Source: an uncultured Ruminococcus sp. (GTDB taxonomy: Bacteria > Bacillota > Clostridia > Oscillospirales > Acutalibacteraceae). Taken from it: a stretch of 64,000 bases of DNA. Position 1 is the stretch's first letter. The number at the start of each line of letters is the position of its first letter. Location: NCBI GenBank assembly GCA_902763835.1, contig CACWTQ010000022.1:10133-74132 (forward strand). The letters are read 5' to 3'. The notes under the pieces were generated by a model. It was not told the DNA's origin and did not search any database. It worked only from the letters and a program-made list of their open reading frames with translations. Positions 10,134 through 60,510 of this stretch are shown in pieces. A program made the position numbers and the translations under genes.

Positions 10134-10832
10134 TCAGCGAGCAATAAATTTCTTTATAACTTCAATGGAGGTTTCGGCAGCCTTCTTCAGAAAAGCCGAA
10201 TAATCGAGGTGAGAGTTTTCATCGCCTCCGTCCGAAATTGCTCTTAAAATTGAGAACGGAACATTATTGATGTAACAAGTCTGAGCGATTGCACCGCCCT
10301 CCATTTCACAAGCTATAGCGGAGAACTTATCGATAATACTCTTCTTCTTTTCGTTGTCATTGATAAAGCAGTCACCCGTTGCGATTGTGCCTGTCTTGCA
10401 GTTCAAGCCAAGCTCCTTGACGCTTTCGGAAAGAATGCCTGTAATGTTATCATCTGTAGGAATATACACGATATTAAGCCCGGAAATAAGACCCGGTTCA
10501 TCGCCCAAAGCGGTTGTATCGATATCGTGCTGAACAACCTTATCGGCAATGGCAACATCGCCGATTGAGAGTTCGTCTGTAAGCGTACCTGCAACACCTG
10601 TATTAATGATAACATCGGGACTAAAACCGAGAATCATCGTCTGAGCACAAACCGCTGAAAAGACCTTGCCTATTCCGCAAACTGCCGTGACAACATTTTT
10701 ACCGTAAATCTTGCCTTTCACGAATTCAATTCCGCTTATGTTAATTGTAACACTGTCTTCCATAAGTGCCTTAATTCCGTCAATTTCGATCTGCATAGCA
10801 CCTATAATTCCAATTTCAACCTTATTCTGCAT
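10134..10832 (-). CDS. mtnN: 5'-methylthioadenosine/S-adenosylhomocysteine nucleosidase
   Basis: ATG at 10832 with GGAGGT upstream. Motifs: IGIIGAMQIE, GIGKV, ACEMEGGAIAQ. It overlaps the luxS stop by 11 nt. Confidence 0.9.
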   Translation of the reverse strand: MQNKVEIGIIGAMQIEIDGIKALMEDSVTINISGIEFVKGKIYGKNVVTAVCGIGKVFSAVCAQTMILGFSPDVIINTGVAGTLTDELSIGDVAIADKVVQHDIDTTALGDEPGLISGLNIVYIPTDDNITGILSESVKELGLNCKTGTIATGDCFINDNEKKKSIIDKFSAIACEMEGGAIAQTCYINNVPFSILRAISDGGDENSHLDYSAFLKKAAETSIEVIKKFIAR

Positions 10833-11289
10833 ACTTAAAATCAACCTCCGATTTACTGTTCAAAACATCAAGATAAGCTTTGCATTCTTTAACGCACGGC
10901 TCAAGAGCAAGATTTTTATAATTTCCGCACTCCTTACGCTCCGCACCGAAAACAGGACCCTTATGGTCAATGATTTGCTGCAAAACAGTTTTGACAACCT
11001 CAAGAACTTTCTGCGGTTCTGTATCCTTAACTATCAAATAGAAACCCGTCTGACAGCCCATAGGACCGAAATAAATAACTCTATCCCCTATTTTGGAGCT
11101 TCTGACATATGTCGCAAACATATGCTCAACCGTGTGCATAGTAATGTTATCCATATAATTACCGCAGTTGGGTTTGCGAGTTCGCATATCATAGGTTATC
11201 AAGTCACCGTCTGTTCTTGAAATATATATACCGGGTTCAATTTTGTCGTGGTCTGCTTTAAAGCTTTCTATTTTTCTAACCTTACTCAA
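10822..11289 (-). CDS. luxS: S-ribosylhomocysteine lyase
   Basis: HTVEHM metal motif, FGPMGCQTGFY, and a conserved Cys near the C-terminus. Start set to TTG 11289, 8 nt after AAGGAG. The longer ORF in the track reads through intergenic repeats. Confidence 0.88.
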   Translation of the reverse strand: MSKVRKIESFKADHDKIEPGIYISRTDGDLITYDMRTRKPNCGNYMDNITMHTVEHMFATYVRSSKIGDRVIYFGPMGCQTGFYLIVKDTEPQKVLEVVKTVLQQIIDHKGPVFGAERKECGNYKNLALEPCVKECKAYLDVLNSKSEVDFKYAE

Positions 11290-11307
11290 TTCATTCACTC
11301 CTTTTTT

Positions 11308-11464
11308 CGGACAACGGCGGACAACGTCCGCAGGAAATACATAAATTATTGGTCGGGTACATGAAGTAAGATTAACAAGAACTATCTTCACGTGTTTTCT
11401 GCGGACATTGTCCGCTCGGTCGGGTGCGTGAATTCTCGTCAAAAAAAGACTATCTTCACGTATT
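11308..11464. repeat. mosaic intergenic repeat locus (modules A,A / C,B / A,C,B; B and C inverted relative to other loci)
   Basis: CGGACAACG+GCGGACAACGTCCGC (11308-11331), TTGGTCGGGTA (11349-11359), AACTATCTTCACGTGT (11380-11395), GCGGACATTGTCCGC (11401-11415), TCGGTCGGGTG (11416-11426), GACTATCTTCACGTATT (11448-11464). Confidence 0.85.
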
Positions 11465-11497
11465 AAAAAAGCACTTGCAAAATTAATTGCAAGTGCT
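11465..11497 (-). terminator. intrinsic terminator after the tRNA pair
   Basis: The minus strand reads GCACTTGCAATTAATTTTGCAAGTGC followed by TTTTTT. Confidence 0.75.
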
Positions 11498-13052: not shown

Positions 13053-13177
13053 GGAACTGTTGGGAAATAAGTTGAACAATTTATACGCAGGATAATTTGT
13101 TCTGTGTTAGGCACAACACCGCAGGAATACTGACGTATTTCAAGGTGTAAATGTTCAAGTTATTTTCTGACAGTTCC
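13053..13177 (-). mobile_element. MITE-like TIR element M2 (125 bp, internal deletion)
   Basis: It starts with GGAACTGTTGGGAAATAAGTTGAACAATTTA and ends with ...TTATTTTCTGACAGTTCC. Flanked by TAA/TAA (13050-13052, 13178-13180). Confidence 0.88.
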
Positions 13178-13188
13178 TAAATCAAATT

Positions 13189-13255
13189 TCGGTCGGGTTC
13201 GTGATTTAAAACTAAAAATTACTGTCTTCACGTTTTTCCGGTGAGCATTGCCCGC
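13189..13255. repeat. mosaic repeat locus (C, B, degenerate A; inverted)
   Basis: TCGGTCGGGTT (13189-13199), ACTGTCTTCACGT (13221-13233), GTGAGCATTGCCCGC (13241-13255). It abuts the stop codon of the downstream-facing gene. Confidence 0.7.
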
Positions 13256-20150: not shown

Positions 20151-21281
20151 TTAATAATCTGCATACAAAAGATATTCGGAATTACCGCTGATAAATCCGT
20201 ACATACCTTTGTTCGGAGAATATACGTACCAATATGTACCGCTTGCATCGATAACATACACATATTCGCCATAGTAAAGCTCCCCTATAATGGAATCGGG
20301 GTCGCTGCTTTCGTCCGACCTCAAAGCAAGGTAACCTATATCCACATCGACAGTATAAGTCGTATAGCCCGAAGTTGGCGGATCTCCCAAACCTGTATAA
20401 ACAGAGGGTTCTTTCTTGCTTTCGACTTTGCTTTCAGCCTTACTCTCAACCTTGCTTTCCGCCTTGCTCTCAACCTTGCTTTCCGCCTTGCTCTCAACCT
20501 TGCTTTCAACCTTGCTCTCAACCTTGCTTTCAGCCTTGCTCTCTGTTTTGCTTGAAGTAACCTTTGAGCTTGAAGTGGTCTTCTTCTCGATTTTCTGCTC
20601 TGAAAGAATTCCCGAATTAATATAACCCATTTCTTCGGATTTATTAACCGCTCTCCAAACACCGCTTGACATTTTTGCAAGAATTGTTACCATATCATTC
20701 TTTGAAAGAGTGGCAAGCACAGCAGAACCTGCTTGGTCTGTGTAAAAATTGGCATTATCGACAGCTACATAATATACCTGACCGTAAGTTATTTCATCAT
20801 AAAGGTCAACAAGATTAGCCGTCTTAATATACCCGAAATTCCCCAGTGTTTCGCTGTAAATAAAAGACATACTGCTTCCCTCGGCATCATTTTTATCGGC
20901 AACAATACTCTTTATAACCGAAACACTCTCTCCGTAATTCAGCACACCGATAACAGTTCCGCTGCCTTTGGCATCTTCAACAACCTGAACGGTGCTTGCT
21001 CCCGTAACAAACATTGTATTGTACGAAGACGTGTCAAACGACAGCTGACTTGCTTCGGGTTCTTCGGTATCTGTTTGTGTGTCTGTATCCGAAACGTCAA
21101 TATCGGTATCGGTGTCAGTATCTGTATTCTCTTCAGAAACGGTACTTTCGTAAAAAGTGGTTGAGCTGATGTCACTTTGTGAATTTTTCGACACAATTTC
21201 ATTGACATCAATTTTACAGCCGCCGAGAATTCCAATAACCGTAAGTGCGGATAAAATTAACAAATACGCTTTCTTCACCAT
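20151..21281 (-). CDS. lipoprotein with SH3b-like domains and (K/A)ESKVES low-complexity repeat
   Basis: Lipobox ILGGC. Three SH3-like segments end in GYIKTANL, GYINSGIL and GFISGNSEYL. There is a central repeat tract. Confidence 0.65.
   Translation of the reverse strand: MVKKAYLLILSALTVIGILGGCKIDVNEIVSKNSQSDISSTTFYESTVSEENTDTDTDTDIDVSDTDTQTDTEEPEASQLSFDTSSYNTMFVTGASTVQVVEDAKGSGTVIGVLNYGESVSVIKSIVADKNDAEGSSMSFIYSETLGNFGYIKTANLVDLYDEITYGQVYYVAVDNANFYTDQAGSAVLATLSKNDMVTILAKMSSGVWRAVNKSEEMGYINSGILSEQKIEKKTTSSSKVTSSKTESKAESKVESKVESKVESKAESKVESKAESKVESKAESKVESKKEPSVYTGLGDPPTSGYTTYTVDVDIGYLALRSDESSDPDSIIGELYYGEYVYVIDASGTYWYVYSPNKGMYGFISGNSEYLLYADY
20413..20550 (-). repeat. in-frame 12/24-bp tandem coding repeat
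   Basis: CTTGCT(T/C)TC(A/C/G)(A/G)CC units encode SKAESKVESKVESK... Confidence 0.8.
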
Positions 21282-23458: not shown

Positions 23459-23630
23459 GGAACTGTTGGGAAATAAGTTGAACAATTTAGACGCAGGATA
23501 ATTTGTTCTGTGTTAGGCACAACACCGCAGGAATACTGACGTATTTCAAGTGACGTATTTCAAGGTGTTGTAACGACACACAGGGCAAATTAGACAAGTA
23601 TAAATGTTCAAGTTATTTTCTGACAGTTCC
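23459..23630 (-). mobile_element. MITE-like TIR element M3 (172 bp, with internal 14-bp duplication TGACGTATTTCAAG)
   Basis: Both TIRs are present and it is flanked by TTA/TTA (23456-23458, 23631-23633). Confidence 0.88.
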
Positions 23631-28678: not shown

Positions 28679-29260
28679 TCACAAATCAATTGAAACATAG
28701 GTTTTAAGAATTTGACGTGCAACCTCTATCTTAGATATCCTCATATCCATAGCCTGTTTTTCGATATACTTATGAGCTCTGTCCTCGCTTAAAGATAAAT
28801 ATTGCATAAGTAAAAACTTTGCTCTGTTAATTATTTTAGTTTCTTCAATAGTTGATTTCAGCCGTTCATTCTCCTTTGAAAGTCCTGCGTAACGCTTCTG
28901 AGCAGCCCTTACAACTCCGAGCGACTGCTTGAAAAGCATTTTGTTGATAGGCTTAGGAACAACCACCACACCGTAGTCAATAACGTTCTTACCCACAAAG
29001 CCTGCTTTATCCGACTGAACAAGCAATATAACCCCACAGACGGTTTCACGGCTTATTTCAACCGAGAGGTCTACTCCGTTGCTGTCTTCTATGGGTGCAT
29101 TTATAACCACAATGTCATAAACGGTATCATTAGCGTATTCCAAAGCAATTTTAGTATCGCTGACAACGTTTTCGACTTCATACGAATTTTCTTCCAGCAA
29201 GTCTTTCAAAACATTAACTGCCGTTGACAGCTTCGACACGAGCAATGCCTTATTTTTCAT
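28679..29260 (-). CDS. ANTAR-domain regulator with receiver-like N-terminal domain
   Basis: The C-terminal RAKFLLMQYLSLSEDRAHKYIEKQAMDMRISKIEVARQIL is an ANTAR domain. The receiver-like domain has N (VVINAP) where the phospho-Asp is expected. Confidence 0.8.
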   Translation of the reverse strand: MKNKALLVSKLSTAVNVLKDLLEENSYEVENVVSDTKIALEYANDTVYDIVVINAPIEDSNGVDLSVEISRETVCGVILLVQSDKAGFVGKNVIDYGVVVVPKPINKMLFKQSLGVVRAAQKRYAGLSKENERLKSTIEETKIINRAKFLLMQYLSLSEDRAHKYIEKQAMDMRISKIEVARQILKTYVSIDL

Positions 29261-29303: not shown

Positions 29304-30425
29304 TCAATAGTTGCCCAAAAATGAGAACTCGGGAAGTTCTTCCGAAAGAGCACAAAGCATTCTGTAATTGTCCTCATTGTGAACATTGCCAATAAAATCA
29401 AGATAAAACAAATATTCAAACGGAACATTCGGGATAGGTCTTGACTCAATCTTTGTGAGGTCAAAACCGTGGGTTGCGAACCTGCAAAGCACGTTGTAAA
29501 GCGAACCGGGGTGATTCGACAGCGTGAAGCAAAGAGAGATTTTATCGGCTTTATCCGAAACGATAGCCTTTTTCGAGATAACTATAAAGCGTGTGCAGTT
29601 GTTGTCGTTATTCTGAATATTCTTATCGAGAACCTTAAGACCGTACTCATCGGCAGCCGCTTTGGTGCAGATAGCCGCCCAGTTTATACGTTTCTCCTCG
29701 GCAACTGTTTTTGCGGCGAGGGAAGTACTTCCGCATTTTTTTGTGGTGTAGCCGTTCTCGCTGATGAAAATGGAACACTGTGCCAAACCCTGTTCGTGTG
29801 AAAGAATATTTTCTATATTGGAAATATCGGTTTGCGGAATAGCACAAAGACAATGTTCAATCGGCAGGTCGATTTCACCGACAATATAGTATCTGTACTT
29901 CAGAATAAGGTCGTAAACTCTCGACACCGAACCTGCCGAGCTGTTCTCAACGGGAAGAACACCAAAGCTGCATTTATCGCTTGCAACGGCTTCAAACACC
30001 TTATCGAAATTCTTTTCAAGGCTGTAATTTGCATTCGGGAAAAATTCCATAGCCGCCAAGTGAGAATTTGACCCCGCACCGCCAAGACAGGCTACATTCC
30101 ATTTATCGGACTGCGTATCAAATTCACTGTCGGAATTAAGGATTACTTCTTTCAAATCATTGTTGCCGTTAATTATGGTGTGCTGCAAATCTCTTGAAAG
30201 TTCCATAATACTGCCGTAAAGCAATCTTGCGTACTTTCCGTACTCTCCGCCGAGCTTCTCCGCCCTGTCCAGAACGACCGCTTCTCTTTTAAGGTTAAGA
30301 ATAGGCGTACCCGATTCACGTTTGCTTTCGGCTACTTTCAGCGAACAATCCATTCTTTTTTTAAACAGTTCGATAATCTGCCTGTCCAAGCTGTCTATCT
30401 CTAATCTAATATCATTCAATTCCAT
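29304..30425 (-). CDS. pheA: bifunctional chorismate mutase / prephenate dehydratase
   Basis: N-terminal CM helix (LNDIRLEIDSLDRQIIELFKKRM), a PDT domain, and an ACT domain with TKIESRP. Confidence 0.88.
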   Translation of the reverse strand: MELNDIRLEIDSLDRQIIELFKKRMDCSLKVAESKRESGTPILNLKREAVVLDRAEKLGGEYGKYARLLYGSIMELSRDLQHTIINGNNDLKEVILNSDSEFDTQSDKWNVACLGGAGSNSHLAAMEFFPNANYSLEKNFDKVFEAVASDKCSFGVLPVENSSAGSVSRVYDLILKYRYYIVGEIDLPIEHCLCAIPQTDISNIENILSHEQGLAQCSIFISENGYTTKKCGSTSLAAKTVAEEKRINWAAICTKAAADEYGLKVLDKNIQNNDNNCTRFIVISKKAIVSDKADKISLCFTLSNHPGSLYNVLCRFATHGFDLTKIESRPIPNVPFEYLFYLDFIGNVHNEDNYRMLCALSEELPEFSFLGNY

Positions 30426-30446: not shown

Positions 30447-31520
30447 TTAAAGCATATTAATAACAGCTATCGCCGCCGCCGCTTCAATTACGGATACCGC
30501 ACGTGTTACAATACAAGGGTCGTGTCTGCCCTTTACGGAAAGAGTTGTATTCTCTTTACTCTGCAAATCTATAGTATTCTGTTTCATAGATATTGAAGCC
30601 GTAGGTTTAATTGCGGCTCTAAAAAGAATAGGCATACCGCTTGTAATACCGCCCAAAGCACCGCCGTGGTTATTCGTTCTTGTGCGGACGTTTCCGTTTT
30701 CGTCATAATAAAATTCATCGTTATTTTTTGAACCCGTGGAACGTGAACCCTCAAAGCCCGAACCGAACTCAATACCCTTAACGGCAGGCACACCGAAAAC
30801 AACGCTTGAAATCACATTTTCAACACCGCCGAACATAGGCTCGCCAACACCTGCGGGCATACCCTGAACTATACATTCTACAACTCCCCCGATACTGTCG
30901 CCCTTTGCTCTTACTGCGTCAACTTCGGCTCTAAGTTCGTTTTCCTTTTCGGGATTCACCAAAGCGAACTTTTCGCCATTAAGTCTGTCAATAAGCTCCT
31001 GTGAAACACCCGTAGGCTCAAACGGGTCGTCATATGTATTGCCGATTGAATAAATATGTGCGGCAATTTCAATACCTTTTCTTTTAAGTATTTGACGGAT
31101 AACAGCACCTGCAAACACAAGATTTGCGGTAAGTCTGCCCGAAAAATGACCGCCGCCACGAACATCGTTAAATCCGTCATACCTAAGATAAGCGGTATAA
31201 TCGGAATGTCCCGGACGAGGAGCATTCATAATGTTGCCGTAATCGCCGGAACGTGTATTTGTATTGTAAATGACAGCCGCAAGCGGAGCACCTGTAGTCA
31301 CTCCGTTGAGAACACCCGACAGAATTTCGGGTTTATCGGCTTCTTTTCGGGGAGTAGCGGTTTTATCGTTGCCCGGTGCTCTCCTTGCCATTTGTCTGTA
31401 AACCTCGTCCATATCTATTTTTTCGCCGCTCGGCAAGCCGTCGATAACTACACCTATTGCCGTTCCGTGGCTTTCACCGAAAACCGATATTTTTACTTTA
31501 TCTCCAAAATAAGAACCCAT
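30447..31520 (-). CDS. aroC: chorismate synthase
   Basis: FGESHG, RPGHSD and GRHDPC motifs. Confidence 0.93.
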   Translation of the reverse strand: MGSYFGDKVKISVFGESHGTAIGVVIDGLPSGEKIDMDEVYRQMARRAPGNDKTATPRKEADKPEILSGVLNGVTTGAPLAAVIYNTNTRSGDYGNIMNAPRPGHSDYTAYLRYDGFNDVRGGGHFSGRLTANLVFAGAVIRQILKRKGIEIAAHIYSIGNTYDDPFEPTGVSQELIDRLNGEKFALVNPEKENELRAEVDAVRAKGDSIGGVVECIVQGMPAGVGEPMFGGVENVISSVVFGVPAVKGIEFGSGFEGSRSTGSKNNDEFYYDENGNVRTRTNNHGGALGGITSGMPILFRAAIKPTASISMKQNTIDLQSKENTTLSVKGRHDPCIVTRAVSVIEAAAAIAVINML

Positions 31521-32776
31521 TATCTATCCACACCCTTTAAAGCTTTATAGTCGTCGAAGAAGTTTGTGTATGATTTAGTAATGCTTTCCTTGTCGGATAT
31601 GACAATTTCGCTCTCGCTTCTCAAAGCCGCAATTGCCATAGACATTACTATTCTGTGGTCGTTGTAACCCTCGGCAAAACCGCCCCGAATGCTCTCCGCA
31701 CCCTTAATCAGCAGACCGTCCTCCGTTTCCGCAGCATTTCCGCCGCAGCCGTTAAGACAATCGGATATTGCCGCAAGCCTGTCACTCTCTTTCAAACGAA
31801 CTCTTTCCGCATTGTAAATTCTGGTTGTACCCTCCGCAAACGACGCACAAACCGCAAGTATCGGAACAAGGTCGGGAATTTGAGAAGCGTCTATATCAAT
31901 TGCTCTCAGATTTCCTGCCTTACATCTTACGCTGTAGTCGCCTTGCTCAACATCAGCACCGAAACGCTTAAGCAGCTCGACAATCTCCTTATCGCCTTGA
32001 AAACTGTCTTTCTTCACACCCTCTGCGGTAACATCACCGCCAATCGCACCTCCGACCAAGAAAAATGCCGCCTGTGACCAGTCGCCCTCCGTTATGTAAT
32101 CACAGGGTTTGTATTTCTGATTACCCTTGATAATATAATCTTCGCCGTCAACATCTATTTCCACACCGAATTGTTTTTGCACAGAAATTGTCATATCTAT
32201 ATACCCTTTTGACTGCAAGGGTGAAGTCAAGTGAATAACGCTGTCACCGTCAAGCAGAGGCAAAGCAAATAGTAAACCTGTGATAAACTGTGAGCTTATA
32301 TCGCCCGGAACATCAAACTTTCCCGAGGCAAGCTGTCCTTTAATTTCAAACGGAAGTCCGCCCGAAGTTATGCACTCCACACCGTGTTTGGGGAGTAAAT
32401 CGGTATACACCCCGAGCGGTCTTTGAGGAAGTCTGCCCTTGCCGTTGAACGTTCCGTTTACACCGCCTGCCGCCGCAACGGGGATAAAAAATCTCACGGT
32501 AGACCCCGATTCACGACAGTCAAAAACTGCGGTTTTATTCTCAAAAATTTTAGTTGAATTTATTGTAAGCTTATCGCCGTCAACGGAAACCTCCGCACCG
32601 AGAGCCTTTATACAGTCGATAGTGGCTGATATATCCTCCGAAAAAGCCACAGGATAAACGGTACTGACCCCCTTAGCAAGTGCGGCACATATAATTGCTC
32701 TGTGAACGTCGCTTTTTGACGGCGGAATTTTAACCGTACCGCAAAGACTTGACGGCTTTACTATAACATTTGACAT
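31520..32776 (-). CDS. aroA: 3-phosphoshikimate 1-carboxyvinyltransferase
   Basis: PPSKSDVHRA, the RLKESDR motif and a 418-aa EPSP synthase layout. The stop overlaps the aroC start. Confidence 0.92.
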   Translation of the reverse strand: MSNVIVKPSSLCGTVKIPPSKSDVHRAIICAALAKGVSTVYPVAFSEDISATIDCIKALGAEVSVDGDKLTINSTKIFENKTAVFDCRESGSTVRFFIPVAAAGGVNGTFNGKGRLPQRPLGVYTDLLPKHGVECITSGGLPFEIKGQLASGKFDVPGDISSQFITGLLFALPLLDGDSVIHLTSPLQSKGYIDMTISVQKQFGVEIDVDGEDYIIKGNQKYKPCDYITEGDWSQAAFFLVGGAIGGDVTAEGVKKDSFQGDKEIVELLKRFGADVEQGDYSVRCKAGNLRAIDIDASQIPDLVPILAVCASFAEGTTRIYNAERVRLKESDRLAAISDCLNGCGGNAAETEDGLLIKGAESIRGGFAEGYNDHRIVMSMAIAALRSESEIVISDKESITKSYTNFFDDYKALKGVDR

Positions 32777-32787
32777 TTCTACTCCCC

Positions 32788-32903
32788 TTTTTTAACACGT
32801 GAAGATAGTTATTCTAATCTTTTTAACACGTGAAGATAGTTATTCTAATCTTTTTAACACGTGAAGATAGTTATCTTAATCCTTACTTTTTCTACCCGAC
32901 CGA
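32788..32903 (+). repeat. mosaic repeat locus: module B x3 in ~31-bp tandem units, then module C
   Basis: AACACGTGAAGATAGTT at 32794, 32825 and 32856; ACCCGACCGA at 32894-32903. It begins 6 nt from the aroA Shine-Dalgarno sequence. Confidence 0.9.
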
Positions 32904-33111
32904 AAGTTAATTTTATTCGGTAGTTTTTGACATACTTTATTTAGTAATTTAAAATTGTTCTATTATAGTTTATTTTGGTTTTAACATATTGAATAGAAAT
33001 ATATAATATAAATTTAAATATCTAAAGTCAGTTAAGCAACAATCAATTAAACTTTCAAACATCAGAAAATCATCTTAGAAAAATATCTTTCCTCAAAAAT
33101 ATAATTACACA

Positions 33112-33942
33112 TTATTCATTGAGTTTTTCTTTTATAAGCCGGCTTTTTTTCAAAAGCTCTTTCAGAACTTCCGAATTATTTTCATCTATCGCATTTTTAA
33201 TATTTGTAAGATTATCTATCAATATGGAAATTTCCTCCGATAAAGGTTCTTTGTTGCTGAGAAACAAATCCGTCCAAAGGTTCTCGTTGATGTTCGCAAC
33301 TCTCGACACATCACGGTAGCTCCCTGCCGAAAATCCCTTGTGATTCTCACAGCAAGGACTCATCACATACGCACAAGCCAAAACGTGCGGCACTTGCGAA
33401 GTAAACGCAATCATTCTGTCATGCTCCTCGGGAGTTGAAATTCTGACAATCCCGAAGCCTATCTCCTTTGCAAGCGTTGCCACCGTGTCAACCGACTTTT
33501 CGTCCGCACTGCACGGAACTACTATATAGCTTGCGTTTTGAAAAAGCTCCGCTTCAGCTGCGTCGTATGAAAATTTCTCTTTGCCTGCCATAGGGTGAGA
33601 GCCGACATACTGCAAGCCGTTTTTGTCGCAAATTTCCGTGAGCCGTCCGCAAATCTCCGTTTTAATGCCGCAGACGTCTGTTATTATACAGCCTTTTTTG
33701 AAATGCTCCGAGTTCTCCTCGACATACGAAACAATATGCTCGGGATATGTACACATATACACAATATCTGCTTTGGAAAGGCTTACAGCCGTTCCTATTT
33801 CGTGAATTGCACCGTCGGCAAAAGCACGTTTTGCCGTGGCTTCACTTCTGTTGATACCTATAACTCTGTGGTCGGTATACTTTGTGAACGCTTTTGCCAG
33901 CGAACCGCCGATTATACCAAGACCGACTATCACAATATTCAT
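33112..33942 (-). CDS. tyrA: prephenate dehydrogenase
   Basis: ATG at 33942 (MNIVIVGLGIIGGSLAKAF Rossmann motif) with AGAGGT upstream. The GSHPMAG motif is present. Confidence 0.88.
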   Translation of the reverse strand: MNIVIVGLGIIGGSLAKAFTKYTDHRVIGINRSEATAKRAFADGAIHEIGTAVSLSKADIVYMCTYPEHIVSYVEENSEHFKKGCIITDVCGIKTEICGRLTEICDKNGLQYVGSHPMAGKEKFSYDAAEAELFQNASYIVVPCSADEKSVDTVATLAKEIGFGIVRISTPEEHDRMIAFTSQVPHVLACAYVMSPCCENHKGFSAGSYRDVSRVANINENLWTDLFLSNKEPLSEEISILIDNLTNIKNAIDENNSEVLKELLKKSRLIKEKLNE

Positions 33943-33958
33943 ACCTTTACTAACCTCT

Positions 33959-34301
33959 TTTTTTAACACGTGAAGATAGTTATTTTAATCCTTACTTTTT
34001 CTGCCCGACCGATTTTTTAACACGTGAAGATAGTTATTTTAATCCTTACTTTTTCTACCCGACCGATTTTTTAACACGTGAAGATAGTTATTTTAATCCT
34101 TACTTTTTCTACCCGACCGATTTTTTAATACGTGAAGATAGTTATTCTAGCCTTACTTTTTTCTACCCGACCGATTTTTTAACACGTGAAGATAGTTATT
34201 TTAATCCTTACTTTTTCTACCCGACCGATTTTTTAACACGTGAAGATAGTTATTCTAATCCTTACTTTTTCTATTATACTTTATTTTTTAACCTGTACCG
34301 A
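33959..34301 (+). repeat. 54-bp tandem array of modules B+C (6 B copies, 5 C copies plus a degenerate sixth)
   Basis: AACACGTGAAGATAGTT (AATACGTG... at 34127) recurs at 33965, 34019, 34073, 34127, 34181 and 34235, an exact 54-bp period. Each is followed by ...CTACCCGACCGA. There are no unique spacers. Confidence 0.92.
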
Positions 34302-34342
34302 TTATAAATCAAATTCAAGAGATGTTGCACATTGTTTTCCCT

Positions 34343-34418
34343 CCTGCGGACGTTGTCCGCCGTTGTCCGCCGTTGTCCGCCGTTGTCCGCCGTTGTCCGC
34401 CGCCACAATTACGCATTA
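34343..34418. repeat. inverted module A, then 10-bp unit CGTTGTCCGC x5, then module E
   Basis: CCTGCGGACGTTGTCCGC; 34351-34400 is five exact copies of CGTTGTCCGC; CACAATTACGCATTA (34404-34418) overlaps the stop codon of the gene at 34416. Confidence 0.9.
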
Positions 34419-35852
34419 AACATTAGCCGTTTCGTAGAACATCATTGCGGTGTAAACAAAAATCGACAGTCCGCAGAACACCGTCATACCCTTTTTCAAA
34501 ACAGCCGCACTCTTTTTGTAATATTTACTCTTGATTTTATCCGCACTGTCAATATACATTCCCAGCATAGCAGAACCCGTAAATATAAGCGGTACACAAT
34601 ATCTCATATTTTCTGTACATACCTGCGGATAATTAATACAGAACATCATATAATTTCCGAATATAACAAGCGATACACCCGTAAGCAAAAGCTTATTTTC
34701 CAATTTTGCCTTTTTGTTTTTCAGCCACATCATAAAAAAAGCAATTGCGGAAAACAGCGATATAAATATTCCCGAAAAAAACAATGCCGTACAGAACGAC
34801 TGCAATGTTATACTTCTTGAAAAGAATGTACCCTCGTCAAACATAGCATTTTTCCAGAGTGCTATTATCGGATTAAACTCATTGTACGCTGCACCGCTCC
34901 ACTCCCACTGCGTAAACGGTGACGCAAACTGAAACGGCAGCCAATTAAGCAGTCTTTCAACAGGTGTTCTGTCTATGAATTGTCCGGAGTTCTCCGAAAG
35001 CTGCGGCACGTAATTCAGCGGAACGTCAAATTTAACGTAATTTCTTACCGACCAGAAAAGTCCTATCGGCACACAAATAATTCCAAACACAACAAACTGC
35101 GGAATAAGCTTTTTAAACTCCTTGATATTCTTTACAAAAATATACAGGAAAACAGCCGCAACACCCGGGGCAAGCAGACCTACCGAAAGCTTTGTAAACA
35201 TTCCAAGACCGATTGAAAATGCAATTATTATTATGTCAAGCCATTTTCTGTCTTTTGCCCATTTGATTGTATAATACATTGCTGTCATACTAAGCAGAGA
35301 TGACAATATATCGTTATTAAGACTTCCTGAAAGTATAATAAGCGTCGGGTGAAAGGTTACAATTGCCGTACATATTTGAACTGTTTTAGGTTTGAGGTCG
35401 AGAAGCCCCAACGCCTTATATGCAAAAACGGAATACAAAAAGGAATATGTCACCGTCAAGAATTGCAGCGACTGAACACCCGTTGTTTCAGCCGACATAC
35501 CCAGCTTGTTAATTATCGTAAGCCACAACGCACATATGATATGGTGCAGCGGAGGGTGATAGAACTGGAAAATATCTCTCGGGTCAAAATCGGGCAGAGT
35601 CCTGTTTTCGTACAGATAGCATATATATTCGCCGTGTCCGGCATTATGCTCAAAAAATTGGTGAACATCATGCTGACGTACATTTATCTCGGTATAAGAA
35701 ATATAAATAATTCTGAGTAACAAACCCGTTAAAAGTATCAGCCAACAAATCAAATCGCTGTCCAGACGCTTTGACTTCTTAAGATACAATCCCGTAAAAA
35801 GCGGTACTGTCAACATTAATGTCATAACAACGGGATATATATATATATTCAT
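34416..35852 (-). CDS. polytopic membrane protein, ArnT/PMT-like (GT39-type) glycosyltransferase candidate
   Basis: 478 aa with about 12 TM segments. The first extracytoplasmic loop with RQHDVHQFFEH...FYHPPLHH resembles the GT-C family. Confidence 0.55.
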   Translation of the reverse strand: MNIYIYPVVMTLMLTVPLFTGLYLKKSKRLDSDLICWLILLTGLLLRIIYISYTEINVRQHDVHQFFEHNAGHGEYICYLYENRTLPDFDPRDIFQFYHPPLHHIICALWLTIINKLGMSAETTGVQSLQFLTVTYSFLYSVFAYKALGLLDLKPKTVQICTAIVTFHPTLIILSGSLNNDILSSLLSMTAMYYTIKWAKDRKWLDIIIIAFSIGLGMFTKLSVGLLAPGVAAVFLYIFVKNIKEFKKLIPQFVVFGIICVPIGLFWSVRNYVKFDVPLNYVPQLSENSGQFIDRTPVERLLNWLPFQFASPFTQWEWSGAAYNEFNPIIALWKNAMFDEGTFFSRSITLQSFCTALFFSGIFISLFSAIAFFMMWLKNKKAKLENKLLLTGVSLVIFGNYMMFCINYPQVCTENMRYCVPLIFTGSAMLGMYIDSADKIKSKYYKKSAAVLKKGMTVFCGLSIFVYTAMMFYETANV

Positions 35853-35877: not shown

Positions 35878-36390
35878 TTACTTAATCGAATTATAAATAT
35901 TCATAATTCGGCTGCAAACCTTTCTTGGGGATTCCTCTGCGTCAATAACATAATCTGCCGCTCTGTTGTAAAGCGGAGTTCTCTGCGAAAGCATCATTTT
36001 AACGGCTTTCTCCTTATCAGCTCTCTGCAAAAGCGGACGTGTGTCGTCGTTCTTCAAGCGTGTGAGAACCGTATTTGACGAAACATTCAACAAAAACACA
36101 ACACCGTTTTTCTTTATAGCTTTAACATTTTTGTCCTTAAGGAGTGTGCCGCCGCCTGTGGAAATAACGGCTGCGTGCAGATTTGAAAGCTCCTTGCAGA
36201 CCTCAAGTTCCAGATTGCGAAAATAGTCCTCGCCTTTCTCGGCAAAAATTTCCGAAATAGTCATACCCTCTTTTTGCTCGATATAAGAATCGGTGTCGAT
36301 AAACTTCATACCCATTCTTTCGGATAATTGTTTTCCTACGGTACTTTTTCCGCACCCCATAAATCCGCACAAAATAATATTTTTTCTCAT
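35878..36390 (-). CDS. aroK: shikimate kinase
   Basis: P-loop GFMGCGKSTVG, 170 aa. Confidence 0.9.
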   Translation of the reverse strand: MRKNIILCGFMGCGKSTVGKQLSERMGMKFIDTDSYIEQKEGMTISEIFAEKGEDYFRNLELEVCKELSNLHAAVISTGGGTLLKDKNVKAIKKNGVVFLLNVSSNTVLTRLKNDDTRPLLQRADKEKAVKMMLSQRTPLYNRAADYVIDAEESPRKVCSRIMNIYNSIK

Positions 36391-37244
36391 TATTTGTTCA
36401 GCTCCTTATAGCAGTCCTCGGCAAGCTTTTCTATATCTTTCGGGTCAAACTCCGAACCGTTCCAAATAGTCTGAGCGGCAGCCGCCTGATACACAAGCAT
36501 AGTCATTCCCGAAATAGCCTTTATACCCTTTTCCCCAGCCTTTTTCACAAGTAGAGTGTCGGTAGGGTTATACACTGCGTCAAACACAGCCTTTGCCTTT
36601 TCGATAACGCTGTCGGACACCGCACAAGCGTCAACTTTCGGGAACATACCTATAGGAGTAGCATTTACAAGCAGGTCGCTTTCACCGTTGAAATCGTCTG
36701 TTGCGTATACGGTTGCCGTACCCTCGCCGTATCTCTCATTGAGTGAATCCGCAAAAGTGCGTGCGTTCTCCAAAGCCGCATCACATTCAAGGATATTGAG
36801 TTTACAGCCGTGCGGAACACAAGTATTCGCAAATACTCTTCCTACACCGCCGCAGCCTACTATTGTAACAGTTTTGCCGAACTCAATGCCTGCATTTTCA
36901 AGAGCCTTTTGGAATCCGATACCGTCGGTTGTAAAGCCTTTTGAAGTATAAGTACCGTCATCGTTATGAGTGAATGCCACAGTGTTTACAGAACCGTACA
37001 AATCGGCGGTGGAATCCTTTTCGGTGAGGAGATGAATAACGGCTTGCTTATGAGGAATTGTCGCATTAAAGCCGTCAAGCTTGGAGAGAGTGTCAGCGAA
37101 TTTTTGGTCAAGCTCCTCGGGTGCGATGTCGAAAACTCCGTAATCTCCGTCAATACCCGACAGTGCAAGCAGTCTTGTATGAATGAACGGTGACAGCGTA
37201 TGACTGATAGGGTGACCTATTACACCGTAATGTTTTTTGCTCAT
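36390..37244 (-). CDS. aroE: shikimate dehydrogenase
   Basis: GVIGHPISHTLSP, NATIPHK and GCGGVGR motifs. The stop overlaps the aroK start. Confidence 0.9.
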   Translation of the reverse strand: MSKKHYGVIGHPISHTLSPFIHTRLLALSGIDGDYGVFDIAPEELDQKFADTLSKLDGFNATIPHKQAVIHLLTEKDSTADLYGSVNTVAFTHNDDGTYTSKGFTTDGIGFQKALENAGIEFGKTVTIVGCGGVGRVFANTCVPHGCKLNILECDAALENARTFADSLNERYGEGTATVYATDDFNGESDLLVNATPIGMFPKVDACAVSDSVIEKAKAVFDAVYNPTDTLLVKKAGEKGIKAISGMTMLVYQAAAAQTIWNGSEFDPKDIEKLAEDCYKELNK

Positions 37245-39724: not shown

Positions 39725-39878
39725 GGAACTGTCAGAAAATAACTTGAACATTTATACTTGTCTAATTTGCCCTGTGTGTCGTTACAACACCTTGAAATAC
39801 GTCAGTATTCCTGCGTGTGCCTAACACAGAACAAATTATCCTGCGTCTAAATTGTTCAACTTATTTCCCAACAGTTCC
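39725..39878 (+). mobile_element. MITE-like TIR element M4 (154 bp, full length)
   Basis: Both TIRs are present with TAA/TAA flanks (39722-39724, 39879-39881). It starts 3 nt after the stop of the preceding gene. Confidence 0.9.
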
Positions 39879-46256: not shown

Positions 46257-46337
46257 CCGGGCAACGCCCGGCGGGCAACGCCCGCTGGAAATACGTGAAG
46301 ACAGTTACTAAAAACATTAACTTATGAACCCGACCGA
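46257..46337 (+). repeat. mosaic repeat locus: two variant A hairpins, B, C
   Basis: CCGGGCAACGCCCGG (46257-46271) overlaps GCGGGCAACGCCCGC (46271-46285). Then ATACGTGAAGACAGTT (46291-46306) and ACCCGACCGA (46328-46337). Confidence 0.85.
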
Positions 46338-46371
46338 AAATTAATTTTAACGCAGGTGATAAAGTCAAACC

Positions 46372-49478: not shown

Positions 49479-50759
49479 ATGTCAAAGTTCTTTAAAAGAA
49501 TTTTTCCTGTATTTTTATCCTTTGCTTTATTTATCACAACAATTCTGTTATGCTGTTTAAAAAATGCCGATAATGACAGCAACATTAACAAACCTCCCGA
49601 CATCATCACGGAAACAAATGACGAAATCCTTTTCACTCCCCCAAAAATTTCAAATAAAACTCACGTTTTTCACAAAGATGAAATGCGTGGTGTGTGGGTG
49701 CCGTACTTCAATTTATCAAACGGCAGCACTCCAATGAGTGAGGACGAATTCAAATCTCACTTTGACAATATTATCAAAACTGCCAAAAACAACGGTATCA
49801 ACACGCTTTTTGTTCACGTTCGTTCTCATTGTGACGCAGTTTATCCGTCCGAAATATTTCCGTTTTCGGATATATTCACGGGCAATTCGGAGGTTGCTCC
49901 CGATTACGACCCTCTTGAATATATGATTTCCGCTTCGCACAAGGCAGGCTTGGAGTTTCACGCTTGGCTTAATCCTTTCAGGGTTATTTCCGATACGGAA
50001 AAAAAATCTCTTGGCGAAAACAGTCCGTGTTACAAATGGCTGCACGATGACAATCCCGACAACGACCGCAATCTTATTGAGTATAACGGCGGTTTGTATT
50101 TAAATCCGTCGCAGCCCGAAGCTAGGTCGCTTATCATTAACGGTGTGAGGGAACTTGTCAATAACTATGACGTGGACGGAGTTCACCTTGACGACTACTT
50201 TTATATGTTCACGGAGCTTGAATATGACGCAGAGGACTATGCGAATTATGTCGAAAACATTGACAACGGTTTTGAACCTCTTCCGCTTATGCAATGGAGA
50301 TGTACAAATATTAACGTTCTTGTTTCGGGTATATACGCTGTAATTAAGAATATTGACGAAAATATTCTCTTCGGTATATCTCCGCAGGGCAATATGGAAA
50401 ACGACCTCGAAATGGGGGCGGACGTTTACTCGTGGTGCAGCCGTTACGGTTATGTCGATTACATAGCACCGCAGATTTACTACAATTCTGATAACCCCTC
50501 TCTTCCCTTTGAGGAAACCGTTGACAATTGGAAAAATATTATCACAAACGACAAAATAAAATTATATGTGGGATTGGCACTATATAAAGCAGGAAGTGAT
50601 GATGACGAGGGAACTTGGCAGACAAGCGACGATATTATACAAACTCAAATCGAATACACTCGCTCCGCAGATACGGACGGATTTATTCTGTATTCGTGGG
50701 AGTTTTTGGAAAACGAACAAACTCAAAATGAAATGGATAATGTCAGGGATATAATGTAA
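49479..50759 (+). CDS. GHL10-type (YddW/UPF0748-like) glycoside-hydrolase-like lipoprotein/secreted protein
   Basis: ATG at 49479 with a signal-like N-terminus. MRGVWV...NTLFVHVR...FHAWLNPF...VDGVHLDDYFY resembles family 10-like glycosylhydrolases. Confidence 0.65.
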   Translation: MSKFFKRIFPVFLSFALFITTILLCCLKNADNDSNINKPPDIITETNDEILFTPPKISNKTHVFHKDEMRGVWVPYFNLSNGSTPMSEDEFKSHFDNIIKTAKNNGINTLFVHVRSHCDAVYPSEIFPFSDIFTGNSEVAPDYDPLEYMISASHKAGLEFHAWLNPFRVISDTEKKSLGENSPCYKWLHDDNPDNDRNLIEYNGGLYLNPSQPEARSLIINGVRELVNNYDVDGVHLDDYFYMFTELEYDAEDYANYVENIDNGFEPLPLMQWRCTNINVLVSGIYAVIKNIDENILFGISPQGNMENDLEMGADVYSWCSRYGYVDYIAPQIYYNSDNPSLPFEETVDNWKNIITNDKIKLYVGLALYKAGSDDDEGTWQTSDDIIQTQIEYTRSADTDGFILYSWEFLENEQTQNEMDNVRDIM

Positions 50760-51096
50760 TATCTTCATCAAAATTCACTCTTCTGTAATTGTCAATATTG
50801 ATTTTGTCCGCCATAACTTCAATGCTGTTATGCAAAATCAAAGCTTCTTTTTGTGCCTTTGTAAGCTGTTTAATTCTGTATTCAAGCCGACAGGCAAGCG
50901 TTCTGTTATCACTTTCCCACACCGCTTCAAGCTTCTTGGCGGTGTGGTTTTTTGTGTATTTTGCACATTTTTCGTTTTTGGAAAAATGCTCCGTCATTCG
51001 GCGTTTTACATCTGTTGTAATGCCTGTGTAAATACTGTTGTCCGTACATCTTAACATATATGTATAATATTTTTGATTATTGTTATTCATAGTCAT
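50743..51096 (-). CDS. GIY-YIG nuclease family protein (UPF0213-like)
   Basis: YYTYMLRCTDNSIYTGITTDVKRRMTEH. Confidence 0.8.
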   Translation of the reverse strand: MTMNNNNQKYYTYMLRCTDNSIYTGITTDVKRRMTEHFSKNEKCAKYTKNHTAKKLEAVWESDNRTLACRLEYRIKQLTKAQKEALILHNSIEVMADKINIDNYRRVNFDEDITLYP

Positions 51097-51556
51097 CTTC
51101 TAAAAACATAATATGATTCTGTAAAATTTTACCGCAATTTTTGCAGGGCATTTTATTGAAAATTTTCGGCATTTTCCAACAGTCAATGTAAGTAAGCATA
51201 ACGGAGTCACCGCTCTCAAAAAACGGCATTAAAACACGTCCATTATTGTGTCGGCACTCTCTGCACAGCCAATTTTCTTTGTAAAAAACGTGATGAAATT
51301 CGCCGTCAATGAGCATACACAAAACAGCAATATTCCAAGTTTTATAATTGGTTTTTAAACGTAATATTCCGAAACGCAGATTGTATTTATCGCAAACCGT
51401 TGGTATATACAATAGATTCCCTATGATATTATCCGAAAAATATTCACTGACAATTTCGCTTTTTAAAAAGCTTTCTTCAAGACCCTTTTTCACAATTATT
51501 GTTTCTGTACCGTCAATATTTATTGTGCTTTCAAAGTATTTTGAAATTTCGGTCAT
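51083..51556 (-). CDS. hypothetical protein with two CxxC pairs
   Basis: 157 aa with CRECRH ... CKNCGK. It overlaps the GIY-YIG start by 14 nt. Confidence 0.55.
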   Translation of the reverse strand: MTEISKYFESTINIDGTETIIVKKGLEESFLKSEIVSEYFSDNIIGNLLYIPTVCDKYNLRFGILRLKTNYKTWNIAVLCMLIDGEFHHVFYKENWLCRECRHNNGRVLMPFFESGDSVMLTYIDCWKMPKIFNKMPCKNCGKILQNHIMFLEDDYE

Positions 51557-51571
51557 TATATTTCACTCCAA

Positions 51572-52075
51572 TTATGTTTTGGTAATTTTTATTTCATTTT
51601 CGTAATATTCAAAAAGTTTATCACGAACATTTTCAAATTCGGAGATATTTATCTCGTTTTCATCGTCAAAAATAATATCCTCATTAAAATATTTACCTGC
51701 AAGAATACGAACGTTGTTTTTATATGCAACGACGAAAAAGTAATATCCAGAATCTTCTATTTCCTGTAAAGGCACTTGGTAACTGTAATCATTCTCGATA
51801 TCGTAATCTTCGGGGAACGTAATTTCACAAAGCTTTTTAAACAAATCCGCCGTACTCATACGGTACAAATCGGCATTGACTTTCGGCTGAAAATTCGGCA
51901 TAGTCGAATTGAAAAGAAAATCCAAATCGGTGTTTAGGGTCGTTGTTCTGAGCGTATCGGGATACATTTTGCCATTTAAATATACATACATAATACCGTT
52001 GATGAACGAATCACTTTCCCATTCGGGTACACGTTCAATCAGAAATGCGAATTTATCGGGGTTTCCGAACAGCAT
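51572..52075 (-). CDS. hypothetical protein, possibly an immunity-protein (Imm42-like) family member
   Basis: The N-terminus MLFGNPDKFAFLIE...INGIMYVYLNGKMYP resembles my recollection of Imm42-type proteins. This is unverified. Confidence 0.4.
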   Translation of the reverse strand: MLFGNPDKFAFLIERVPEWESDSFINGIMYVYLNGKMYPDTLRTTTLNTDLDFLFNSTMPNFQPKVNADLYRMSTADLFKKLCEITFPEDYDIENDYSYQVPLQEIEDSGYYFFVVAYKNNVRILAGKYFNEDIIFDDENEINISEFENVRDKLFEYYENEIKITKT

Positions 52076-53792: not shown

Positions 53793-53804
53793 TTTTTTTT
53801 ATTT

Positions 53805-53897
53805 GACACGTGAAGATAGTTATATATTAACATAACTTTGCGTACCCGACCGAAAGTTGTTTTTATTGAGGAGTTTTAGGTTTCTCCTTTTATAGTT
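53805..53897 (+). repeat. mosaic repeat locus: B, C, D
   Basis: GACACGTGAAGATAGTT (53805-53821), ACCCGACCGA (53844-53853), and TTGAGGAGTTTTAGGTTTCTCCTTTTATAGTT (53866-53897) with a GGAG/CTCC stem. Confidence 0.85.
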
Positions 53898-53928
53898 GGG
53901 ATTTTATAAAATTTAAAAATGACAATAT

Positions 53929-54018: not shown

Positions 54019-54108
54019 TATCACAATTAGGAACTGTTGGGAAATAAGTTGAACAATTTAGACAAGTATAGATGTTCAAGTTATTTTCTGACAGTTCCTT
54101 ACGCATTA
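54019..54108. repeat. module E copy split by MITE M7
   Basis: Left flank CTATCACAATTA plus right flank (TTA)CGCATTACAAA reconstructs CTATCACAATTACGCATTA, identical to 37534-37552. Confidence 0.8.
54030..54098 (-). mobile_element. MITE-like TIR element M7 (69 bp, TIR-only deletion derivative)
   Basis: GGAACTGTTGGGAAATAAGTTGAACAATTTAGACAAGTATAGATGTTCAAGTTATTTTCTGACAGTTCC with TTA/TTA flanks (54027-29, 54099-101). Confidence 0.88.
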
Positions 54109-54970: not shown

Positions 54971-55111
54971 GGAACTGTTGGGAAATAAGTTGAACAATTT
55001 AGACGCAGGATAATTTGTTCTGTGTTAGGCACAACACCGCAGGAATACTGACGTATTTCAAGGGGGCAAATTAGACAAGTATAAATGTTCAAGTTATTTT
55101 CTGACAGTTCC
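54971..55111 (-). mobile_element. MITE-like TIR element M8 (141 bp)
   Basis: Both TIRs are present with TTA/TTA flanks (54968-70, 55112-14). It lies between the phosphatase and Fic genes. Confidence 0.88.
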
Positions 55112-59981: not shown

Positions 59982-60000
59982 TTTTATCACAAACCTTTTG

Positions 60001-60248
60001 CGGACAACGTCCGTTTTTTTAATACGTGAAGACAGTCCTTTTTTAATACGTGAAGACAGTCCGTTTTTTTAATACGTGAAGACAGTCCGTTTAAAATCTG
60101 GCTTTACGAACCCGACCGATAGTTGATTTTTGGCGAGAGTTTTAGGTTACTCTTTACATAGTTTATTTTTTGGCGAGAGTTTCAGGTTACTCTTTACATA
60201 GTTTATTTTTGGGCGAGAGTTTCAGGTTACTCTTTACATAGTTTATTA
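60001..60248 (+). repeat. mosaic repeat locus: A, B x3 (24-26-bp units), C, D x3 (40-bp units)
   Basis: GCGGACAACGTCCG (60001-14); AATACGTGAAGACAGTCC at 60022, 60046 and 60072; ACCCGACCGA (60111-20); TGGCGAGAGTTT(T/C)AGGTTACTCTTTACATAGTTTATTTTT at 60131, 60171 and 60211. Confidence 0.9.
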
Positions 60249-60439: not shown

Positions 60440-60510
60440 GGAACTGTTGGGAAATAAATTGAACAAATTATCCTGCGTCTAAATTGTTCAATTTATTTCC
60501 CAACAGTTCC
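60440..60510. mobile_element. MITE-like TIR element M9 (71 bp, right-type TIR at both ends)
   Basis: GGAACTGTTGGGAAATAAATTGAACAAATTATCCTGCGTCTAAATTGTTCAATTTATTTCCCAACAGTTCC with TAA/TAA flanks (60437-39, 60511-13). Confidence 0.85.

Follow-up and report, generated by a model that had tools for sequence, protein, structure and literature searches.

What are the short tandem repeats that divide a set of aromatic amino acid genes in an uncultured rumen Ruminococcus, and do they serve the genes that they separate? The DNA in question is a 64,000-nucleotide stretch of contig CACWTQ010000022.1 (positions 10,133 to 74,132 of the forward strand; the window in what follows), in which the 473-bp spacer between the PMT_2 membrane protein gene (PMT2) and tyrA and the 335-bp spacer between tyrA and aroA are filled by repeat arrays. 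The units of these arrays are modules of a genome-wide, mosaic family of intergenic repeats and are not specific to the aro genes. It is likely that the arrays are local tandem amplifications of these small, lineage-specific modules, which resemble the BOX, BIME and MIRU repeats of other bacteria; the family does not code for protein, and it is probably non-autonomous and selfish or neutral. An aro-specific regulatory array, the tempting wrong reading of this locus, is now removed.

A dispersed family of mosaic repeats

Alignment of more than 100 copies yields a modular order and an inverted arm. Module A is a hairpin (GCGGACGTTGTCCGC), module B a run of T residues followed by AACACGTGAAGATAG, and module C is CCCGACCG; a further module, D, contains CGGTAGTTTTTGACCAACTTTATT. 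After its T-run the core of B reads AA(C/T)ACGTGAAGA(T/C)AGT and continues into ~20 variable nucleotides. These are followed by CTTCACGT, which is the complement of B and its partner in a stem (decayed in about half of 121 distinct units), by the C core ACCCGACCGA, and then by module D and the centre. An inverted B-C arm is frequent after the centre, and last comes module A, the 3' half of which may recur at a 10-bp spacing. The complete element is an imperfect palindrome of ~220-240 bp: (T-run-AACACGTGAAGATAG - loop - CTTCACGT-ACCCGACCGA) - centre - (inverted arm) - GCGGACGTTGTCCGC. At full length the elements form long hairpins with imperfections (z -6.0, -3.5 and -4.5 relative to shuffled sequences, the last of these being the element at 11296..11475).

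In the aro spacers, Tandem Repeats Finder (TRF) delimits three arrays: 31 bp x3.0 at 32789-32881 (96% matches), 54 bp x5.8 at 33959-34273 (95%) and 10 bp x5.2 at 34351-34402 (100%). The periodicities described in an earlier, sequence-only reading of this DNA are confirmed by motif counts as well as by TRF: AACACG at 33965, 34019, 34073, 34127, 34181 and 34235 marks six B motifs at exact 54-bp spacing, three ~31-bp B units lie upstream of aroA, and CGTTGTCCGC is counted five times, exactly, at 34351-34400. That reading also placed module C in each of the six 54-bp units, which holds for five; the sixth (34228-34273) ends before C. Gapless identity among 54-bp units 1-5 is 81-100% (mean 93%).

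Neither motif is confined to these spacers. The window has 14 copies of the 18-mer B motif TTTAAYACGTGAAGAYAG, at 5 loci (0.03 expected from shuffled sequences), and 9 copies of CGTTGTCCGC (0.04 expected). With looser searches for the cores, the family is found at about 9 loci of the window; those outside the aro spacers include:

11296..11475, minus strand: B-C, A, B-C, A with the 10-bp repeat, between the terminator of a tRNA-Leu gene and luxS
13185..13245, minus strand: solo B-C unit
37404: copy of module A (motif search)
46258..46340, plus strand: A-like hairpin GCGGGCAACGCCCGC and a B-C unit, upstream of a murT-like gene
53795..53900, plus strand: B-C-D unit immediately 3' of the stop codon of a MIP channel gene
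60000..60247, plus strand: A half-hairpin, three 24-26-bp B units, C core and a 40-bp x3.2 D-like array

The last of these comprises two arrays (24-26-bp B units x3.3 at 60009-60092 and 40 bp x3.2 at 60119-60247) upstream of a sugar transferase gene (59295-59981, minus strand). Module A in the form GCGGAC-NNN-GTCCGC is present at 11317, 11401, 34346, 37404 and, as a variant, 46271, and at many related loci outside the window.

The family also occupies dozens of loci in two uncultured rumen Ruminococcus metagenome-assembled genomes (MAGs): RUG14662, which is 93-97% identical to the window in syntenic DNA, and RUG11832, whose genes are only 67-79% identical to those of the window. An exact 20-mer scan with one genome per species found at least 63 stretches, 62 of which, among the matches listed, are from these two genomes. 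To have framed the repeats as a property of the aro cluster was therefore misleading, since the same modules recur at ~9 loci of the window and at dozens in the two MAGs. The exact motif was absent from viral contigs, and blastn of the repeat against plasmid and phage collections gave no match; an origin in phage or plasmid is rejected on these grounds. No Rfam 15 model corresponds to the family, even at E<=1, and a literature search found the A and B motif strings in no paper and nothing on intergenic repeats of Ruminococcus. What is documented here is a previously undescribed and abundant mosaic repeat family of uncultured rumen Ruminococcus.

Strain variation and the ancestral junctions

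Among other rumen metagenome assemblies, 21 contigs encode exactly the TyrA of the window, and many of these contigs stop at the arrays. Where contigs with identical TyrA span the PMT2-tyrA spacer, its length and its numbers of units differ:

473 bp (window): six 54-bp units, five 10-bp units
389 bp: five 54-bp units, two 10-bp units
247 bp: two 54-bp units, four 10-bp units
534 bp: four 54-bp units, three 10-bp units
449 bp: two 54-bp units, three 10-bp units

The tyrA-aroA spacer, with its three 31-bp units in the window, has two 31-bp, four 54-bp or three 54-bp units elsewhere. Unit 4 of the 54-bp array is a marker variant (AATACG..CTAGCC), and the order of marker units is preserved among contigs, one of which (L064) equals the window minus unit 2; this preservation of order implies that the variation is not only collapse in assembly. 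Strains have either two or three of the 10-bp A units upstream of luxS. The arrays at 60 kb lie in a 682-bp spacer that is identical, as a whole, in another assembly (L074).

RUG14662 presents further alleles. It has two ~89-bp units upstream of aroA, one unit plus a 13-bp partial unit upstream of tyrA, and an additional B-C unit inside the A hairpin. It also has a complete one-arm element between aroA and aroC (L038:6962-7110), where the window has a TAATG stop/start overlap (31520-31540). The C-termini of AroA differ between L038 and the window (..NLIGGVVI* versus ..KALKGVDR*). The sequence GGGTGTGAATAGATAA that follows this element resembles the end of the aroA coding sequence and might be a diverged ~16-bp target duplication, overlapping the coding sequence, in what is an ambiguous case and the sole filled/empty comparison.

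In relatives with 89, 78, 73 and 60% TyrA identity, PMT2 and tyrA are 20-24 bp apart where PMT2 is present, tyrA and aroA are 52-99 bp apart where adjacent, and no A or B module was found at the aro locus. These tight, module-free junctions argue that the repeats are a recent, lineage-specific invasion of a compact operon. Judged by this comparison, the tight repeat-free operon is the ancestral state, and two junctions that relatives keep tight were invaded by elements, whose one-arm pieces then multiplied head to tail. The sequence-only reading had suggested recent amplification with copy-number polymorphism and had named identical array sizes in all relatives as part of what would speak against it; identical-TyrA contigs differ in unit number (2-6 of the 54-bp and 2-5 of the 10-bp units), which upholds the suggestion. 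The arrays can serve as markers of the VNTR (variable number of tandem repeats) type for tracking strains in rumen metagenomes. The repeats also break short-read assemblies: many tyrA contigs end at arrays, and one joins tyrA to unrelated genes. On that contig (L069; ERZ920241 scaffold_25065) rsmD-like and coaD-like genes take the place of aroA after an identical tyrA, either through chimeric assembly across repeats or through a real rearrangement.

Anatomy of the aro arrays

The genes around the arrays form a string, aroE-aroK-PMT_2-tyrA-aroA-aroC-pheA-ANTAR, that lies wholly on the minus strand. Assignments are from the list of open reading frames (ORFs) and Pfam, which bear out the co-directionality proposed before:

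36390-37244, minus strand: aroE
35878-36390, minus strand: aroK
34416-35852, minus strand: PMT_2 (GT39/ArnT-like) membrane protein gene (Pfam PF13231), stop codon 13 nt from the A array
33112-33942, minus strand: tyrA, prephenate dehydrogenase (Pfam PDH_N and PDH_C)
31520-32776, minus strand: aroA, 5-enolpyruvylshikimate-3-phosphate (EPSP) synthase (Pfam PF00275, E 4e-96), start codon 11 nt from the repeat terminus
30447-31520, minus strand: aroC
29304-30425, minus strand: pheA with chorismate mutase (CM+PDT)
28679-29260, minus strand: ANTAR response regulator gene

Read on the plus strand, the two filled spacers are composed as follows (from TRF, sequence and comparison of copies or alleles):

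32788..32849, plus strand: two 31-bp partial B units (T-run and AACACGTGAAGATAGTTATTCTAAT)
32850..32940, plus strand: third B unit, leading into a full one-arm element with B, C core CCCGACCG (32895-32902) and D (CGGTAGTTTTTGACATACTT, 32923-32937)
32941..32975, plus strand: distal module, present in other copies too (TAGTAATTTAAAATTGTTCTATTATAG)
33958..34273, plus strand: B-C units of 54 bp, six in direct tandem, with the sixth (34228-34273) truncated before C
34274..34345, plus strand: remnant of further dispersed modules, 27 bp shorter than the RUG14662 allele
34346..34402, plus strand: module A, with the 15-bp hairpin GCGGACGTTGTCCGC (34346-34360) and its 3' half CGTTGTCCGC x5.2

The aro arrays consist of one-arm units only, in direct tandem, and the opposite arm is missing. 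On the gene strand each aro B-C unit reads TCGGTCGGGTAGAAAAAGTAAGGATTAAAATAACTATCTTCACGTGTTAAAAAA, and the last unit of each array passes into an A-run before the ribosome-binding site of tyrA or aroA; the 31-bp units end in CACGTGTTAAAAA, immediately 5' of the aroA Shine-Dalgarno sequence GGGGAG. A makes up 44% of the sense strand of the arrays, and every unit has stop codons in each of the three sense frames, which rules out small MIRU-like ORFs on that strand. An open frame runs antisense through the 54-bp units and has no start codon; at other loci the periods are not multiples of 3.

Arrays of this kind had been proposed to be structured or AT-rich spacers co-transcribed with the genes. 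On either strand the fold of the 54-bp array is poorer than that of shuffled sequence (z +1.7 and +2.0), and the A array forms a hairpin that is not followed by a U-tract or T-run and folds no better than shuffled sequence. For 30 dispersed copies of the family RNAalifold gives 0 and -1.2 kcal/mol on the two strands, that is, no consensus structure. The structured part of the proposal is rejected by these single-array and consensus folds. A search of the whole window with Rfam at the gathering threshold, and of 32600-34600 at E<=1, found only two tRNAs. Rfam, the folds and RNAalifold, together with the unrelated neighbouring genes described below, thus provide no sign of the structures of a cis-regulatory RNA (T-box, riboswitch, attenuator or ANTAR two-hairpin); a target of ANTAR, a T-box or an attenuator was considered and rejected because hairpin and terminator features are absent and the family is genome-wide.

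Transcription through the arrays

A scan of the region found no terminator-like site on the sense strand of the aro arrays and no promoter-like -35/-10 hexamers inside the units on that strand, in agreement with the sequence-only reading; both results make read-through plausible. RNA from bovine metatranscriptomes, assembled as k-mer contigs, bears on this. One contig from run X1 (1284 nt) joins aroA coding sequence to a single 31-bp unit and then to modules C and D, up to 32995, and a second contig carries tyrA with 31 nt of the first unit. These contigs are compatible with the elements being part of the mRNA and weakly suggest transcription through the arrays, so that co-transcription, as originally proposed, is plausible. 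The units would share the transcript of the operon, or would form 5' leaders that run right up to the ribosome-binding sites of tyrA and aroA. Being A-rich and unstructured, and having no terminator-like site, they would be tolerated as inert spacers, and any effect on expression would be a by-product of spacing or leader length rather than regulation specific to aro genes. The natural series of 2-6 units before an essential biosynthetic gene makes the effect of inserted leaders on operon expression addressable.

In the same RNA material the k-mer depth of module A (34328-34391) is far above that of neighbouring genes in runs X1, X2 and X7 (704 versus 12 in X1), and many RNA contigs lead from module A into other unique flanks. 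This depth may reflect copy number across loci and species, or also an abundant RNA.

The elements might alternatively bring promoters with them: TATAAT boxes in the distal modules would start the tyrA and aroA transcripts, and the arrays would be long, A-rich 5' leaders that tune translation or the stability of the mRNA through their length. We regard this as unlikely. TATAAT does stand on the gene strand just upstream of both arrays (at 32962-32967 in the distal module, and at 34273-34278 and 34301-34306 beside the 54-bp array) and recurs in the same module elsewhere; many copies have TGGTATAAT or TGGTATGAT, which resemble an extended -10 element, in gene-sense orientation; and repeats such as the Correia elements are known to create promoters (PMC3049150, PMC3184786). 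The frequent abutment of array ends on translation starts, described in the next section, also speaks for leaders. However, the region scan found no acceptable -35 element for any of the three boxes, promoter-like matches in the array region are as frequent as in shuffled sequence (6 versus 5.2), and copies diverge in the -10-like hexamer (TATGAC, TGTGAT). The one strong match, TTGACA-17-TAAAAT on the plus strand at 32927-32955, whose -10-like half belongs to the distal module, is also the best match overall and faces away from aroA, antisense to tyrA. Finally, the RNA contig from run X1 reaches 30 nt past the candidate -10 box.

Gene boundaries and conserved cores

At the outer ends of arrays the T-run lies directly against a functional boundary, always on the same strand at the B end. 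Among ~86 such ends, 35-45 (~40%) sit against a Shine-Dalgarno sequence with its start codon, the gene being on the opposite strand; 12 abut a terminator-like hairpin with which they have the T-tract in common; others abut stop codons. Copies may face either way relative to the downstream gene: the units are antisense before aroA and tyrA and sense before luxS. The genes that adjoin copies in the window are functionally unrelated (Pfam), which argues against a pathway-specific function or a single function at the RNA level.

The B and C cores are near-invariant in RUG11832 too, and the sequence between them is species-specific. Such a pattern is in keeping with sites that a mobilising or binding protein recognises, and does not fit a conserved RNA fold, given the consensus energies near zero reported above. 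Could the cores be host sites? In this explanation the B core (AACACGTGAAGATAG, with the palindrome CACGTG), the C core, or both would bind a DNA- or RNA-binding protein of the host, such as a nucleoid-associated or global factor, and the arrays would be platforms of multiple sites maintained by selection. Conservation over more than 100 copies and two species while the flanks drift, and the consistent position of copies at gene boundaries, are what one would expect of it. Recognition sites for a mobilising enzyme predict the same conservation, however, and other properties of the family are difficult to reconcile with selected sites: neighbouring genes are unrelated in function, orientation varies, relatives with 60-89% TyrA identity manage without modules at the aro locus, and unit number is free to vary among strains with identical TyrA. 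Host binding platforms are thus distinctly improbable.

Formation of the arrays

Tandem restarts in ~30 sampled locus-strands have periods of ~13, 15-26, 31, 51-54, 58, 74 and 85-91 bp. Those of B type begin at the T-run, many junctions lie in internal T-runs, and modules of A and D type also build arrays. Junctions in internal T-runs fit slipped-strand mispairing followed by unequal exchange, and the equal length of units within an array fits amplification of one initial duplication. Multiplication would proceed by replication slippage or illegitimate recombination, often seeded at a T-run, and then by unequal exchange, which would generate the strain-variable unit numbers and VNTR behaviour.

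The recurrence of partial copies anchored at the T-run nevertheless poses a small question about how repeats grow, and polar copying from the T-run/A-run terminus is another answer to it. Copies would either be inserted 3' of a T-run through a single-strand mechanism by an HUH/Y1 enzyme (of the IS200/IS605 or RAYT type) whose gene does not lie beside them, or arise by target-primed, 3'-anchored copying, which would leave them truncated on the 5' side and with an A-run at their end. B junctions do restart at the T-run terminus regardless of how long the partial unit before them is (~12 to 123 bp), and breakpoints after AACACG and after CCCGAC(CG) recur at independent loci with no more than 1 nt of microhomology. 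The T-run is on the same strand at the B end, merging with terminator U-tracts or with the A-run before a Shine-Dalgarno sequence; an inverted target duplication is not visible, and hairpins (the B stem and the A hairpin) are situated near both ends. Set against this are the mostly equal lengths of units within one array, as from a single initial duplication, the many junctions in internal T-runs, the A-type and D-type arrays that do not start at a T-run, and a search of the window and of 640 kb of related loci that yielded neither a Y1 transposase nor a reverse transcriptase. Polar copying is accordingly highly improbable, although, if true, it would land by preference right at ribosome-binding sites and at the U-tracts of terminators and would so generate new 5' leaders in rumen Ruminococcus.

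Several observations weigh against local amplification of selfish or neutral modules, which we nevertheless prefer. The 13-bp and 52-54-bp classes of duplication recur at independent loci with no more than 1 nt of microhomology, which simple slippage does not predict. The tight abutment of T-run ends on Shine-Dalgarno sequences at so many array ends could be a selected function. No clean target-site duplication and no precise empty/filled pair was obtained, and flank inspection of copies other than the one between aroA and aroC in RUG14662 revealed no duplication. Neither a transposase, nor a Y1/HUH enzyme, nor a reverse transcriptase was found among the ORFs of the window or in 0.64 Mb of sampled related loci, and tblastn with an IS200 TnpA query, a weak test, gave no match in the 640 kb. 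Genes flanked by inverted copies are ordinary genes. The copy numbers come from short-read assemblies, which are able to collapse identical units, and the metatranscriptome contigs are unstranded, possibly include DNA and do not place the ends of transcripts.

An autonomous parent element was sought and rejected: inverted motif pairs 0.5-3.5 kb apart enclose CpXC, an FkbM methyltransferase and a dockerin protein, and not transposases.

Comparison with known repeats

The family has no sequence in common with BOX, BIME, MIRU or transposable elements of the miniature inverted-repeat kind (MITEs), and the resemblance to each is one of design. BOX elements of Streptococcus pneumoniae (boxA-boxB(n)-boxC) are likewise small, modular, intergenic repeats dispersed in a Firmicute genome, with complementary terminal modules that make the full element a long hairpin (compare the z of -3.5 to -6.0 here) and with a variable number of internal or tandem modules; the analogy does not extend to sequence (Rfam 15 at E<=1, and the modules set against the description in PMC3049150). 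The tandem number of boxB is used as a VNTR in pneumococci, and BOX can be co-transcribed with neighbouring operons and has no known transposase (PMC3049150). In contrast with BOX, the amplified piece is here a terminal arm, in units of 13 to ~90 bp that restart at the T-run, and the aro arrays, without the opposite arm, are unstructured. Many copies of the Ruminococcus family abut ribosome-binding sites, whereas BOX is over-represented between convergently transcribed genes (PMC3049150).

Enterobacterial BIME and REP sequences are also mosaics of short motifs with a G+C-rich palindrome, and are extragenic (inside operons as well), clustered, tandem and present in hundreds of copies (PMC3184786). 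REPs are short, G+C-rich imperfect palindromes of 21-65 bp clustered in mosaics, and module A (15 bp), in combination with B, C and D, corresponds to this description. The conserved B and C cores, unlike REPs, are not palindromic, and the host is a low-G+C clostridial bacterium. No GTAG-headed REP or RAYT gene was found, nor a Y1_Tnp domain in ORFs of the window.

The MIRUs of Mycobacterium tuberculosis are, like the aro arrays, direct tandem units (40-100 bp) at intergenic junctions inside operons, which relatives lack at the homologous junction and whose copy number varies among strains (PMC3184786). The corresponding variation here is 54-bp x2-6 and 31-bp x2-3 between identical-TyrA strains, with tight junctions in relatives. 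MIRUs are transcribed within polycistronic mRNA (PMC3184786), which the metatranscriptome contigs weakly suggest for the Ruminococcus family too. The small ORFs of MIRUs overlap the flanking genes, whereas the units described here have stops in all three sense frames; a filled MIRU site is flanked by 4-bp direct repeats, and none was seen here.

With MITEs (Correia elements of Neisseria, RUP) the family has in common small size, A+T-richness, inverted terminal arms, a strong fold at full length, insertion by or within transcription units and the possible creation of promoters (PMC3049150). B-C arms flank the centre of the full element, as inverted ends do in MITEs. In contrast to MITEs, no matching insertion sequence (IS) or transposase was found. 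A target-site duplication has one ambiguous candidate, between aroA and aroC, and no clean empty site was found. The modular composition and one-arm tandem arrays are also atypical. A search for a cognate IS or transposase with matching ends, in the ORFs of the window and between inverted copies (~0.6 Mb sampled), was negative.

Other observations

The window contains a second, unrelated family that is MITE-like, with an 18-nt end GGAACTGT[TC][GA]G[GA]AAATAA in inverted pairs 50-150 bp apart at ~10 loci per 64 kb:

350-501, 13053-13177, 23459-23630, 39725-39878, 54030-54098, 54971-55111 and 60440-60510: inverted pairs
40130, 44439 and 62465: solo ends

Contig ends in run X13, at 32814 and 32914, read into sequence of this second family, so that one strain seems to carry it inside the element upstream of aroA. 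A third repeat family is represented by a 279-bp insertion in RUG14662 (L038:881-1160) with inverted ends ATATACTC..AAGATTTAGCA, at the position of 26261 in the window, from which it is absent; it is also present in L008, L014, L044, L048 and L052. RUG14662 has in addition ~520 bp with a small ORF between aroC and pheA (L038:5343-5866), likewise absent from the window.

The longest luxS ORF (10822-11442) extends 51 codons upstream over the repeat element, and the LuxS domain begins at residue 57; the start called in other assemblies is a TTG at 11289, with GGAG 8 nt upstream. A 12/24-bp repeat (x10.5 / x5.4) at 20415-20543 lies inside an ORF (20151-21281) for an SH3_3 domain protein and is a coding tandem repeat. 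A small cluster at 50743-52075 combines a protein with a GIY-YIG nuclease domain, an ORF that has no annotation and an immunity protein (Imm42), and looks like a polymorphic-toxin immunity island. A dockerin-bearing protein encoded in the window fits a cellulosomal Ruminococcus.

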